Position numbers and translations under genes: made by a program
Notes under the pieces: generated by a model
What the model was told of the DNA's origin: nothing
Database searches by the model: none
What the model saw: only the letters and a program-made list of their open reading frames with translations
NCBI GenBank assembly: GCA_964016885.1
Contig: OZ024740.1
Coordinates: 388,740,001-388,804,000, forward strand
Reading direction: 5' to 3'
DNA length: 64,000 bases
DNA from: Eledone cirrhosa
Lineage: Eukaryota
Shown: piece by piece, positions 27,727 through 58,541 of the stretch
Numbering within the stretch: the stretch's first letter is position 1
Layout of the letters: each line of letters begins with the position of its first letter

Positions 27727-27788
27727 TATGTTATCTGATGAGAGCGTACCAAAAGTTTTGGTACCCTTGAAATATATATAATAAAATA
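27727..27788 (+). ncRNA. Minimal type I hammerhead ribozyme, family B
   Basis: TTAT-CTGATGA-stem II (GTACCAAAA/TTTTGGTAC)-GAAA-TATATA-TA-ATAA. Confidence 0.75.
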
Positions 27789-28360: not shown

Positions 28361-28427
28361 AATATGGTTTTATAAATATAGTTTCCATTTATTTAATATC
28401 ATTGTATATACATATATATATATATAT

Positions 28428-28633
28428 AACAAAGGAAGTGTGGTAAGGAACAAGATGGACCATAACGCACCAGCGTACTCAATACTTAGGGTAGTAGAGT
28501 GAGAAATAGGAAAAAGTATGACCCCGACGCCAGAGCTCAAGCCGTTTCGACGTCCAGAAATAGCCGTCCATAAATACCAGTCCATAAATAGACGACGAAA
28601 CGGCTTGAGCTCTGCCGTCGGGGTCATAGTTTT

Positions 28634-28636
<3 letters not shown>
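28428..28636. mobile_element. Family A pLTR fold-back
   Basis: Palindrome TATGACCCCGACG...CGTCGGGGTCATA; flanked by (TA)n. Confidence 0.75.
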
Positions 28637-28692
<56 letters not shown>

Positions 28693-46269: not shown

Positions 46270-46653
<384 letters not shown>

Positions 46654-47483: not shown

Positions 47484-47888
47484 AACGAAGGAAATGTGGT
47501 AAGGAACCAGGTGGACCATAACGCACCAAAGTACTCAATACGTAGGGTAGTAGAGTGGGTAGGAACGAGTAGGACCCCGACGGCTGAGCTCCAGCCGTTT
47601 CGACGGCTAATTCTGGACTAAATGAAAATTGTTATCCTGGTATATGAATAGCCGAGCTTCTCAGGGGGTAATTCCATATATGGTAAAAGTGATTGTCACA
47701 AGGATTGGTCAAAAGTTTGTTGTTGAGACACATAATTCTATCATGGCAATTTGTGGAAAGAAGGTGTAGCTGAACCTGCCAGTACTGAGAAGCTCGGCTA
47801 TTCATATACCAGGATAAAAATTTTCATTTAGTCCAGAATTAGCCGCCGAAACAGCTTGAGCTCAGCCGTCGGGGTCCTACTCGTTCCT
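47484..47888. mobile_element. Longest family A cassette, containing a complete hammerhead-like fold at 47574-47669 (-)
   Basis: Reverse complement: ACCCC-CTGAGAA-G..CGGCTA(long insert)TAGCCG.C-GAAACGGC..GCCGTC-GGGGT. Confidence 0.75.
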
Positions 47889-47900
47889 ATATATATATAT

Positions 47901-48123
47901 ATTAGAAAATATATAGCTTTCACCGTATTTTTGACTAAAGGAATTTTTTTTTTTTTTTTTTTATTAGCTTGATAACGGGGTTTAGAACCCTCAGATAAAT
48001 GGAAAAAGATTTATCTGAGGGTTCTAAACCCCGTTATCAAGCTAAAAAAAAAAAAAAAAAAAAAAAAATTTTCTTTTAAATTCCTTTAGTCAAAAATACG
48101 GTGAAAGCTATATATTTTCTAAT
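47901..48123. repeat. Fold-back inverted repeat with internal poly(T)/poly(A)
   Basis: Arms meet at about 48004; next to (TA)n. Confidence 0.85.
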
Positions 48124-48160
48124 TTCAAACTCGCTCACTGTTTCAAAACATACTTACTTG

Positions 48161-48236
<76 letters not shown>

Positions 48237-48352
48237 TTGTGTGTGTATGTATGTATATATATATATATATATATAATATATAGAGTTATAAACTCAAAAT
48301 AGTCTTTTACAATTAAATAGCTCAAAGAAAGAAATACCTCCGAGCCGTGTAA

Positions 48353-48768
48353 TACAAATGAATATATGATAGGGATAAACACAGATCAAGTATACATGTG
48401 TTCGCATTGCAAATGACCAAGTTAGCTAGATTGAAAAATACTAATTAAAATAATACGGTTTGCCTGTCTCGATTTAAATCAATAAAAACAAACCTATATT
48501 GGCAATAGCCGTGATACCCGGACACATTTTTAATTTGTTTCACAACAATTAAGTGAAAGTTACTATTCCTGTTACTATGCTGTTGCGAAACAAATTTAAA
48601 ATTTGCCCGGGCCACGGCTATCGCCAATTTAGGTTTGTTTTTATTGATTTAAATCGAGACAGGCAAACCGTATTATTTTAATTAGTATTTTTCAATCTAG
48701 CTAACTTGGTCATTTGCAATGCGAACACGTGTATACTTGATCTGTGTTTATCCCTATCATATATTTAT

Positions 48769-48773
<5 letters not shown>
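48353..48773. mobile_element. Fold-back cassette (about 195-bp arms) retaining only the hammerhead 3' half
   Basis: GAAACAAATT..AAT(T/G)TGTC-CGGG next to the centre in both arms. Confidence 0.7.
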
Positions 48774-48802
<29 letters not shown>

Positions 48803-49039
48803 TATATATCTATCAGATCATATATATATCAGATCAGAGCAAACATCATGGACGTTCTATCTCAAAATTATTTTTGAAAAGCATTAGAAATGCGCAACCG
48901 GTAAAACTTAAAACCAAAACTGAATACTAACCAATACAATTACTAATTCTCACTTATTCCTAATTAAACTACTTTTCACTGTGAACAAAGTCAACGAAGG
49001 GAAAATGAAACATGTGTCAGTGAAAATTAATTAAATTGT

Positions 49040-50835
49040 AACACTTCAAATGCCAGGGTTGGGGCGGAATCACTGACAGCAGAACAAATTAAAGAAAGGA
49101 TCGAAAAAGTTGAAGGAGTGCATGCTCAAGATGAAACTAAAAATGAAAACAATGAGATCGTCAATGATAAAGAAATGAATGAGAATGAACTCACCGACTT
49201 GAAGAATGAAGTTATGATCGAATGAATGAAAATGAAAGAATCTGACATGGGGACCGAGACACTCTCCCTAAGATCCAGAACTCCAAACAAAACCAAAGGA
49301 TAATACACAAGACTAACATAACTCTCAAAAACATTATCATCACAAATAAAGTAAACATTACTGATCTAAATCATCTCTATTATGCATCGGCTAAAGTCAC
49401 CACTCGCTTATGTGGAGTGGAAATGAAAAAACAAAGGAATTCCCACAAAAAACCTACTTGGCAAGAGAACATCAATCGCCAAATAAACCTTCTCCGATCT
49501 GACATAGAAATTTTAGCAAACTATAAAGTAGGTGAACATGTTAAACAAACTAAACTTAGAAAATTGAAAAGAAAATACAGTATAAAATCAACAAGTGACA
49601 TAGACATGCTGACAGAAACAATCAAGCAAAAAGTGTCGGCCAAAGCTGCTCGTATAAGGCGCTTTGAAAAACGATCTAGATTCTATAAGGACAATAATAT
49701 GTTCAAAAACAACCAAAGAAAACTGCAACAATTGGATTATCTACATATCTAAGGGAATCACATGATTGGATGATCAAACTCGTTTTGAAACACGAAAGCA
49801 TCAAAAGATCATATTCCATTACAAAAGATGCACAAAGATACAGTAACGAACTACAAATTAGAGAAGCTCCATTTACTGCTAAAATGAAAAACACAGAAAA
49901 AGCAAAGCAGGTAAAAGTAACTGCAAAGAAAGAACTGCTACAGAAACTGGCTAAGAAATGGCAAGAAAAGCCTCTGTATGGAAAATACCCAGAAAAAGCT
50001 AACAATCCTGATGTTGACAAAACTTTAACCCATCAGTGGTTGGCATCCTCTGGACTGAAATCGGAGACTGAAGGACTGATTATATCAGCACAAGATCAGT
50101 GTCTGCGAACAAAAAATTACCAAGCCAACATCATAAAAATGGATGCAATCAATTATGCCGTGAGACCATTGATCATATAATTTCAATGTGCAGTCCTATA
50201 GCTCCAACCGAATACCTAAACAGGCACGACAGAGCTGCACAATACATACATTGGATAATGTGTAAGCATTTTGACCTGCCCCATCAAAATGATTGATGGG
50301 AGCATCAATCACGTCCCGTACTTGAAAAAGATCACATCTCAATCTTGTGGAACTTTAGCATGCAAACAGACCGAAAAATAGGTTCAAATAGACCTGATAT
50401 AACATTGAAGGACTTTAAAAAGAGGGTATGCCTGCTAATTGATATGTCCGTTCCAATAGACAAGAATGTATCTATAAAAACATTTGAAAAATTGAGCAAG
50501 TATAAAGACCTGGAGATAGAAATTGGAAAATGTGGAAGTTGAGAACTAAAACAATACCAGTGGTTGTGGGCGCTCTAGGAATGATACCTAAGGGGTCTAA
50601 TGATTACTTATCCCAAATCCCAGGAAACCCACGTATAGAAGAAATTCAAAAGATAGTACTAATGGGAACTGCCCATATACTAAGGAAGATTCTGTCAATA
50701 TAAGTACATCACAAGTCTAAACACCTAAAGATGCATGTGTGTATGTATGTTCTTTCTTGAACATGGCGGACCTTGTATCTTGAGGTCACTGGTTGTGGCT
50801 TGGTGATAACTCGCATGAACATAAAGCAAGATAAA
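49040..50835 (+). mobile_element. R4/Dong-like LINE family 2 with the RT deleted
   Basis: N-terminal KQKVSAKAARIRRF is joined to the post-RT region (ETEGLIISAQDQ, RHD, RPDI); 3' part is closely similar to 35500-36225. Confidence 0.9.
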
Positions 50836-50895
50836 TAATACTAATATTAAAAGGGAACAAAGAATCCGTATTGCATCATGCGTCTACATGTGAAC

Positions 50896-50987
50896 ACATA
50901 TCTGAGAAGCTTCCGATTCCAGAGTCAGGATCGATCATTAATCGATCGTTCCTCGAGCTGATCGGCAGTGAAACTTATGTAATATGT
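50896..50987 (+). ncRNA. Type I hammerhead-like motif with CUGA-GA-A core
   Basis: ACATAT-CTGAGAA-GCT.CCGAT..ATCGG.AGT-GAAAC-TTAT-GTA-ATATGT, inside an imperfect inverted repeat at 50836-51043. Confidence 0.65.
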
Positions 50988-51129
50988 AATTAAGTATGTA
51001 AATGATACAATACTGATTCTTTGTTCCATTTTAATATTATTATTGATACTCAGCTCCCCATGAGCATCGAATGGTCATCTTCGCATACAGCCTGCGGATG
51101 CAATTAATTTGCACCTGTAATACCCAAAG

Positions 51130-51208
<79 letters not shown>

Positions 51209-55490: not shown

Positions 55491-55772
55491 TAGTAATAAT
55501 AATAAATTAGAAGACTAAATCCAAAGAGGGCTCGATAAGGATAAATATATATCAAATATATAAGAACCTTAGAGCAAATATTTATTAAAATAACATATAT
55601 AACGAAGGAAGTGTGGTAAGGAACCAAATGCACCATAACGCACCAGAGTACGCAATACTCAGGGTAGTAGAGTGGGTAATAGGAAAATGTTTAATCCCGA
55701 CGGCAGAGATCAAGCTATTTCTGGATAGAAATAGCCGTCGAAACGGCTTGAGCTCTGCCGTCAGGGTTAAAC
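55491..55772. mobile_element. Naiad pLTR fragment (55491-55595) followed by a family A fold-back (55600-55772)
   Basis: Matches 56045-56148 and 28428-28636 respectively. Confidence 0.8.
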
Positions 55773-55857
55773 ATTTATATATATATATAAATGTACTGCA
55801 AAATACACTAAATATATTGCAAAATACACTATATATACATTCATATATTATTATTAT

Positions 55858-56417: not shown

Positions 56418-58541
56418 ATGCAGAAACAAGATCTGAATATTTCTACAAAGAACATACCCGTACCAAGCAGGAAAACATACCTAAAACTCCTGATACAGAA
56501 AACAGACGCGTTCATTAAAAGGTTACGTTGGCGTGCCTTTTATTTCGATAATCCGCGAAAAGCAGACAACAAACAGGATAAATTTGGGTTTAAAACCTAT
56601 AATAACCCCCCGTGTAACCCAGCATTGCTACCCTTCGAAAATGATGTCTTGGAACTCATACGGAGTATCAAATTTCGGAATAGGAGCAATTCCTTCCAGC
56701 AGGACCTGAAGGATAGAATTCGTTCTATTAAGGATTCTAATACCGTGCACGTCCATTCCGACAAAACTGGCAACCTACATCAAGTGGAGCGCAGTACTTA
56801 CCATCAACTACTACATAATGCTGTAACTAAGGATTACCGTAAAACTAATCGGTGCGTCATCAATGAAATCAACGATGCTGGGTTTAAAATCACATCTGAT
56901 CTCAACATCCTGAACCGGACCGAAACTCTGGACTCTATTTCTCCCCACTTTACCCTGAAGGATCACAAGTCCAATTTTCCGAACAACCCCTCTATTCGGC
57001 TTATTAACCCTACGAAGTCCGATTTAGGTAGACTTAGTAAAACGATTCTTGATAGAATTATACCTGAAATTAGAAGTTTGGCCCCTCTTGCACTGTGGAA
57101 CAATTCTTTCGCGGTGATTGATTGGTTCAACGGCATATGTAACAAGGAACATTGCCGTTTTATCCAATTCGACATCAACAATTGCTACTCCTCCATCACT
57201 TTACCACATGTCCTTAGAGCTATCAATTTCGCTAAAACACTCACAGTGGTTAAGGATTTCGAAGTTGATGTCATCCTCAATGTCCGTAAGTCGGTGATTA
57301 ATTTCGACGACTCTATTTGGATTAAAAAATCCAATAGTACCCCATTCGACGTCAGTATGGGCGCCAACGATTCTGCGGAGGTTACTGATCTTATCGGCCT
57401 TTTCCTTCTTTTCTCTATCAAGGACGAATTCCCCAACGCGGGCGGTGGTTTGTACCGTGATGATGGTCTTTTGACCATGACTAAGTGCGGACCTCGTGCT
57501 TACGACAGGTTCAGAAAAGAACTCACAGCCTTCTTTAAAGGCTTCAACCTCTCTATACAGGTTGAGGCCAATCTCTCAGTCGTTAATTACCTCGATGTTA
57601 CCCTCAATTTATTGAATGGGTTGTATTACCCGTATAGAAAGCCGAATGATACGCTAATTACATAAGTAAGCATTCCAACCATCCTGCCAGCATAACCAAG
57701 AACCTGGCAAGAAACGTTTCGTCGAGGCTTTCCCGTCTATCTACTAACGAGCATATTTTCAACGACCATTCCACTTATGAAGCTCTTGCTCGGAGTGGAT
57801 TTGTCGATAAGGTAGCATATACAGAGTACGAAAATAGACCTAGAAGAAATAGATCCCGTCGCATTTGTTGGTATAACCCACCATATAATATGGAAGTGGC
57901 CATACCATTAGCTAAGATCTTTCTTTACCTTATTACGAAGCATTTTCCCCCTACACATAAATATAGTAAACATTTTTAATAGAAATACTATTAAAATTTC
58001 TTACTCTACGACTCCTAACCTTGCACATAACATCACAACTTCAAATTTAGCTAAACTACCTAGCCGTAGGAACACGTGCAACCCTGTAGTTAGTACTAAC
58101 TGTAATTGTAGGAATCGGGTTGATTGCCCCCTATCCGGGAAATGCCTCTCTAGTAACATTGTCTACAAATGTAAGGTTGAAACACCCACGTCCCGTAGGG
58201 CCTACATAGGGTTAACCGCCAATAGATTCAAGCAGCGTATTTACATGTATACCCATTCTTTTCGTTACTCTCTAAGAAGGAATGTGACGTCACTTTCAGC
58301 TTATATCTGGAGTCTAAAAGACAACCACACCCAATATAAGTTACACTGGGCGATCCTAGCTAGGGCTAGATCGTATAATGGAAATAAAAGACCATGTGAC
58401 CTCTGCGCCGCTGAGGCCCTGGAAATACTCTACGCCACAGACCACATCTTAAACAAAAAATCTGAGGCAATTTCGGCTTGTAAACATAAATTGCACAAAA
58501 CTTTCCTGTATTACAGCCCCACGTTATACCCTAACGGATAG
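56418..58541 (+). pseudogene. PLE RT plus GIY-YIG endonuclease, with frameshifts near 57655 and 57975
   Basis: STKNIP..FIKRLRWRAF, SDKTGN, RLINP.KS, FDI, MGA, YRDDGL, YLDVTL, SNHP, WYNPPY, CNC..CPL.GKC, IVY..YIG, CDLC..E, LNK.SE. Confidence 0.92.

Follow-up and report, generated by a model that had tools for sequence, protein, structure and literature searches.

Do two hammerhead motifs that lie close together in the genome of Eledone cirrhosa carry the same core, CUGAGAA, because this core is a functional variant, or did the two motifs reach it independently? The original prediction treated the core as a recurrent natural variant (N7 deleted plus an extra A, or G8A) found in two unrelated families and not produced by random decay. 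The question was examined in the window, which is the whole 64,000-nt stretch of contig OZ024740.1 (388,740,001 to 388,804,000), and in the surrounding 3.0 Gb, microsatellite-rich genome. The reading that we consider probable is that the match between the two families, here called A and B, is a coincidence, and that the C3·A8 core of family A is a weakened ribozyme that was tolerated and later repaired.

The two motifs and their surroundings

The shared sequence CTGAGAAG starts at 47664 (-) and at 50902 (+), as had been predicted, and both sites are inside type I hammerhead frames with a long stem II. The family A motif contains a stem I of ACCCC/GGGGU, a stem II of G-C plus CGGCUA/UAGCCG enclosing a 39-nt loop, GAAA, a stem III and a GUC site. 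The family B motif contains a stem I of ACAUAU/AUAUGU, a long stem II, GAAA and a GUA site. The long stems II and the two sites were correctly foreseen; stems I and III, described as intact in both, are so in family A, but stem III of family B is broken in the window copy. The shared core 8-mer occurs seven times in the window, counting both strands. Both motifs are repetitive, with 1116 and 1982 first-look candidates, of which 40 were scored for each. A scan with Rfam gave 61 matches, none of them a hammerhead, and neither motif matched a hammerhead model; the monomer minimum free energies of the motifs were not notable (z -1.47 and -1.90). The features of the locus are as follows.

47484..47784 (-): 5'-truncated family A Penelope-like element of subfamily X4, represented by its 3' end
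47574..47669 (-): family A type I hammerhead motif
47669-47665/47578-47574 (-): strands of family A stem I
47658..47664 (-): core CUGAGAA, with a C3·A8 mismatch derived from UUGANAA (U3-A8)
C3=47664, G7=47660, A8=47659, G10.1=47657 (-): core positions of family A
Between 47579 and 47578 (-): predicted cut of family A
47785..47889 (+): second family A copy, inverted and 5'-truncated, starting at CTGAGAAG and ending at (TA)n
50828..50879 (-): short inverted fragment of a family B 3' end, head-to-head with the copy at 50882..51139 (83% over 52 nt)
50882..51139 (+): 5'-truncated family B Penelope-like element, represented by its 3' end and running up to (TA)n/(TG)n
50896..50987 (+): decayed copy of the family B type I hammerhead motif
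Positions of the family B motif (+): C3=50902; private changes are G8A at 50907 and, within helix III, A>T at 50975; the cut is predicted after 50981

The family A copy at 47484..47784 (-) runs through the end of the 3' UTR, the hammerhead, the first 3' end, a tail of ~75 nt and (TA)n, and its tail matches the full unit down to ~47479. By sequence it belongs to subfamily X4, and positions 47772-47560 are 96% identical to a long X4 copy (L143). The inverted copy beside it lacks the 5' strand of stem I, has two private changes and forms an inverted repeat. Further family A insertions, arranged head-to-head and broken off within loop II, were seen at 46350-46590, 28371-28650, 55595-55795 and 2671-2940; they retain no more of the hammerhead than its 3' half, and truncation of this kind is very frequent genome-wide. 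Pieces at 56914-57409 (+), ~73-75% identical to the family A ORF, represent an older related Penelope-like element. Canonical CTGATGA cores occur in other repeats of the window at 27735 (+), 28166 (-), 28308 (+), 30661 (-) and 31002 (+), some of them within long inverted repeats. The region 48830-50850 (+) holds what remains of a non-LTR retrotransposon, interrupted by frameshifts, with an RHD..H zinc knuckle and an RPD endonuclease motif at the C terminus; it may be R4/Dong-like.

The family B core was examined with a pattern anchored on both sides of it, which gave 152 matches. Among the 100 matches listed, counted by hand, CTGAGGA was found in 53, a core fitting CTGANGA in 58, and CTGAGAA in 8, the window copy included. 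The same 100 matches were changed 9 times at C3, 6 at U4, 13 at G5, 5 at A6, 10 at G7, 13 at G8 and 2 at A9; G8 is therefore altered as often as the other G positions, indicating neutral decay. Comparison of the 8 CTGAGAA copies gave one common flank letter, also present in canonical copies, and neither a diagnostic change nor a CUGAGAA subfamily was found among them. CTGAGAAG itself occurs in 3 of 37 aligned family B rows. Helix III of the family is a palindrome with the consensus ACAUAUGU and a self-duplex energy of -7.0 kcal/mol, compared to +0.8 for the ACUUAUGU of the window copy, in which the palindrome is broken. The canonical C3-G8 core of the family, the private G8A and the broken palindrome together identify 50896-50987 as a decayed copy. 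The ten identical core nucleotides of the two window copies are what speaks for a recurrent variant that selection has fixed in both hammerhead families, themselves unrelated, but this is very improbable: the family B consensus reads CUGANGA, G8A arises there at the rate of changes at other G positions, and the letters were reached by different routes, G8>A in family B and U3>C in family A (see below). For family B a recurrent variant is refuted, and the common core is coincidental and carries no significance.

The families had been described as unrelated, and the two hammerheads do align only weakly (a score, with the common 10-nt run counted in it, that 5 of 500 shuffles attain). The reverse transcriptase (RT) pieces of the two families are 42% identical over 214 aa, indicating that the host elements are related. 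The family B copy at 50882..51139 is 88% identical to the 3' end of a long copy (L216) that has an RT and a GIY-YIG endonuclease upstream, with the motifs CSCRKPEAC, CGLC and CLH read by eye in a segment excluding the DKT region. In family A the upstream ORF encodes an RT, a CxCX5C linker and a GIY-YIG domain, is without CCHH, and contains DKT, CxxC and CxH; the motifs read by eye from the translations are SDKTG, CNCPDGSIC, CNLC and CKH. A Pfam search with four ORF pieces returned no family. In tandem arrays family A has a single ORF of 717-719 aa with the RT followed by the C-terminal GIY-YIG endonuclease. The tandem unit of 3.54 kb consists of the hammerhead, the first 3' end, a 75-nt tail, a short leader, the ATG, the ORF and a 1.1-kb 3' UTR, with the ATG about 190 nt past the predicted cut. 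One locus (L248, G000:C1:91472900-91480600) contains head-to-tail full-length units with intact ORFs at a spacing of 3543 nt, and three further long copies are truncated exactly at the ATG. Copies of family A are inserted at (TA)n, form tandem and inverted structures and carry a 3' tail.

Core states of family A and their order

A flank-anchored pattern for family A gave 7041 matches genome-wide, of which 4945 read TTGANAA (U3-A8) and 1434 read CTGANAA (C3·A8). Among the first 100 matches listed, 73 had U3, 25 had C3, 2 had another letter at position 3, and none had G8. All four letters occur at N7 in the U3 copies, while N7 is G in 95 of the first 100 C3 copies among the matches listed. The 40 nearest rows nearly all contained CTGAGAAG, a sample that is biased to the query. 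A pattern with a canonical core placed upstream of the 3' half of family A gave 67 matches. Ten of them had the family's own 5' strand and are family A copies with G8; the remainder were rejected as chance junctions. A stands at position 8 in the family as a whole and also in the outgroup, hence by descent, so that the window core is a U3-A8 core with U3>C. Both histories originally proposed, N7 deletion with an extra A and G8A, are thereby set aside for family A. The Watson-Crick pair between positions 3 and 8 is U-A in the 4945 matches and is absent, as C·A, in the window copy and in subfamilies X2-X4.

Four unlabelled contig runs from one public study were used to check the alleles of the window copy. 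About half of the contig depth at 47664 was the U3 allele, and no variant was listed at 47659. As both alleles at 47664 are present in the public-run contigs, neither is an assembly error. Deletion of a T from a five-C subfamily was also considered as the origin of C3 and was rejected, since U3 subfamilies with four Cs were found and the extra C is specific to subfamily Z.

The order of the subfamilies was obtained from two trees. The first used 300 nt upstream plus the motif, with position 3 masked, from the 132 of 195 de-duplicated copies that were long enough, and gave a ladder from W and Z (U3) through X2, X3 and X4 (C3) to X5 and Y (U3). The second used the endonuclease region, about 1 kb off, of 46 copies, with X5 absent and one copy each of X2 and W, and agreed with the first as (W,Z)-X2-X3-X4-Y. 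Divergence from the consensus was 0.086 for W, 0.055 for X2, 0.034 for Z, 0.031 for X3, 0.038 for X4 (median 0.031), 0.032 for X5, 0.015 for YG and 0.009 for YA; X3, X4 and X5 are not ordered by divergence, and their order is given by the trees. Consensuses were supported by 7-8 copies for W, X2 and X3 and by 3-4 copies for X5, YG1 and YG2, and the copies were retrieved with anchors inside stem II. The sister family A', used as the outgroup, differs in loop II and has a compensatory pair in stem II; among the 100 matches listed for it, 16 copies had a full core, every one with U3 and A8. The youngest subfamily has 2144 exact matches and intact ORFs. The U3 of X5 and Y has X-type letters on both sides, which favours a point reversion over recombination. 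We infer from the subfamily sequences that the core passed from U3-A8 to C3·A8, remained so through three subfamilies, and then returned to U3-A8. Three C3-phase copies (L072, L073 and L082, G000 C1 and C2) have A8>G, which restores a canonical C3-G8 pair; two of them, L073 and L082, group weakly (support 0.86) and are possibly a small alternative repair.

Constraint, predicted folding and activity of the C3·A8 core

Between the consensuses of X2, X3 and X4 none of the 43 core and stem sites changed, compared to 7.5 expected (7.2 when composition-matched, p about 0.001), while loop II accumulated 6 changes over 39 sites and the free sites, about 304 in number, accumulated 53. The result held without the anchor strand (p 0.002). 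With the 5' half taken by itself p was 0.05, and with the core taken by itself, where none of 11 sites changed and 1.9 changes were expected, p was 0.15. Over all nine branches there was one core or stem change against about 34 expected, with U4, G5, A6, A9, G12, A13, A14 and A15.1-U16.1 unchanged and N7 changed three times; X2b, which has 2 copies at one locus, was omitted from these counts. The stems are paired in 97.6% of cells across 10 subfamily representatives. Their covariation is weak: a single pair is compensatory (A-U in A' for G-C), another changed from G-C to G-U, and 55 of 500 shuffles matched this level. The unchanged core and stems indicate that C3 was inherited from active master elements and did not arise by decay of copies. 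The claim that CUGAGAA is not random decay thus stands for family A, where this state persisted over three subfamilies in succession and is found in 1434 copies, the remainder of the ribozyme being conserved, and falls for the family B copy.

The signal for the core alone or the 5' half alone is weak, so that the conservation could reflect binding of the RT to the 3' end and not catalysis. In this alternative the motif is kept for a non-catalytic purpose (RT binding, initiation or a promoter), cleavage is irrelevant, and position 3 drifts between U and C beside a run of Cs. Several observations fit: in vitro insertion of the Anolis element is normal with catalytic mutants, and RNA-seq in Anolis is reported to show no ends at the cut site (Frangieh 2024, PMC11167929), Naiad elements flourish without hammerheads, and the 5' junctions of family A show no peak at the cut site, with 6 of 183 tail-bearing ends stopping 12-14 nt before the anchor, some of them through mismatches. 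Despite this we regard it as improbable. Across the entire tree the 11 invariant core sites have no change and N7 has three, a contrast that is the signature of a hammerhead, position 3 reverted to the sole base that pairs with A8, and the changes in the youngest subfamily are predicted to favour the active fold.

The same conservation could alternatively mean that the C3 core was fully active. It is unlikely, in our estimate, that CUGAGAAG is a working family A core, either as an N7-less core with a C3-G7 pair or as a protein-stabilised C·A core, present in three subfamilies and more than 1400 copies of an autonomous lineage; if it were, descriptor searches with CUGANGA or UUGANAA would miss a whole class. 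The specific form in which CUGAGAAG is active by a shift of register, with a C3-G7 pair, N7 deleted, an extra A before G10.1 and perhaps help from a protein, is quite unlikely. It would account for U3>C and A7>G occurring on the same branch (W>X2), for N7 staying G through X2-X4 while varying among the U3 subfamilies, and for the unchanged core and stems of the C3 period. An additional nucleotide separating position 9 from position 10.1 is described as common in Penelope hammerheads (PMC4209133), and a protein-assisted Penelope hammerhead is known (PMC11167929). However, the W>X2 branch is long (46 flank changes) and less than one N7 change is expected in the C3 period, so that neither pattern at G7 is significant. 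The lineage also returned to U3 with G7 retained, family B gives recurrence no support, and the U7G and G8A double mutant is among those of low activity in published data (PMC9901934).

These data (Roberts 2023, PMC9901934) were obtained for all double mutants of a type III scaffold with the template core CUGAUGAG, on which U7G plus G8A gives exactly the CUGAGAA core. Every mutant in the core region is reported with low activity except the C3G/G8C swap; U3-A8 is not flagged as rescued in the accessible part of that report, so that the assay may miss modest activity. In the Anolis Penelope, cleavage by the hammerhead requires protein, and single mutants of position 3 or 8 abolish cleavage and leave insertion in vitro unaffected (PMC11167929). 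From this analysis the C3·A8 mismatch likely weakened cutting in family A.

Monomer predictions gave a probability of 0.31-0.60 for slippage of stem I into the core in the C3 consensuses compared to 0.01-0.21 in the U3 consensuses. The competent fold, predicted for the monomer without tertiary contacts, had a probability of 0.38 in YA and 0.002-0.075 elsewhere, and two changes that arose later, in the youngest subfamily, would by these predictions turn the active fold into the one of minimum energy. Stems II and III of family A use the same CGGCU/AGCCG strands, and a predicted swap of partners caps GAAA in a dead hairpin; one change each in A' and the youngest subfamily is predicted to break this swap. 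Helix III of family A is a near-palindrome, fit for dimers.

The tolerance of a weakened ribozyme could be explained by the arrangement of the element. In head-to-tail arrays the multimeric RNA would be cut by the hammerhead at a point that lies upstream of the following ATG by about 190 nt. The aligned genomic copies read across the cut site, so that their RNA templates were uncut at that 3' hammerhead. As copies would come from RNA uncut at this site, slow cutting may cost little and the lineage could keep spreading, and weak long-term selection for a working fold may have led to the reversion and to the two later changes in the youngest subfamily.

Comparison with known systems

By its motifs and description, family A is a Hydra-type Penelope-like retrotransposon. 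The Hydra clade was defined by a single ORF with an RT and GIY-YIG, DKT, CxCX5C and no CCHH (Craig et al., 2021, PMC8557442), and family A also resembles it in the CxxC and CxH around E/N, the (TA)n targets and the 3' hammerhead. It differs in its length of 3.54 kb and in reading RWR where the Hydra clade has RWK. The Hydra motifs in File S2 of that paper all have C3 and G8, which fits the canonical core of family B, whereas family A has U3-A8 or C3·A8. A canonical 3' hammerhead is a described trait of the clade and not its basis; family B has it and family A does not. The Hydra-1_oBim motif listed there differs in sequence from family A.

Minimal hammerheads with U3-A8 are described in the Cercyon Penelope-like elements of Schistosoma mansoni (Cervera and de la Pena, 2014, PMC4209133). 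Family A is similar in the terminal position of its type I hammerhead within a Penelope-like element, in the U3-A8 core of most copies, and in a long helix II, a short helix I and a palindromic helix III suited to dimers; its helix II bulge is as in the Penelope of D. virilis (PMC4209133). Unlike Cercyon, its helix III is substantial, it has no extra nucleotide between A9 and G10.1, and C3·A8, which the accessible text of PMC4209133 does not mention, is present in one fifth of the copies. Perreault et al. (2011, PMC3088659) described natural covariation from C3-G8 to U3-A8 and tolerated core changes of low activity, such as A6C and the viroid U4C, but the C3·A8 mismatch and N7 deletion are not named in the accessible text. 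Nothing on a CUGAGAA core was found in the accessible parts of PMC11014351 and PMC6155905, and the literature searched, with incomplete coverage, contained no paper on a natural C3·A8 or N7-deleted core.

PAc Poseidon of Anolis (PMC11167929) is similar to family A in having a hammerhead upstream of two 3' ends that define the tail, and in its tandem pLTR-ORF-pLTR arrangement. Its core is canonical and its ORF starts inside stem II, while the ATG of family A is about 190 nt past the cut. In Penelope elements the motif is conserved, yet dead mutants insert in vitro, and family A bears on whether these elements need their hammerhead. Read from its sequences, it is a case in which an active Penelope-like family lost the 3-8 pair at the level of a lineage and regained it; the pair appears to have passed through a natural mismatch and the lineage survived. 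It provides a dated natural series within one lineage, paired, mispaired, re-paired and refolded, and as the members of this series differ by single letters, their cleavage rates could be compared directly with evolutionary success.
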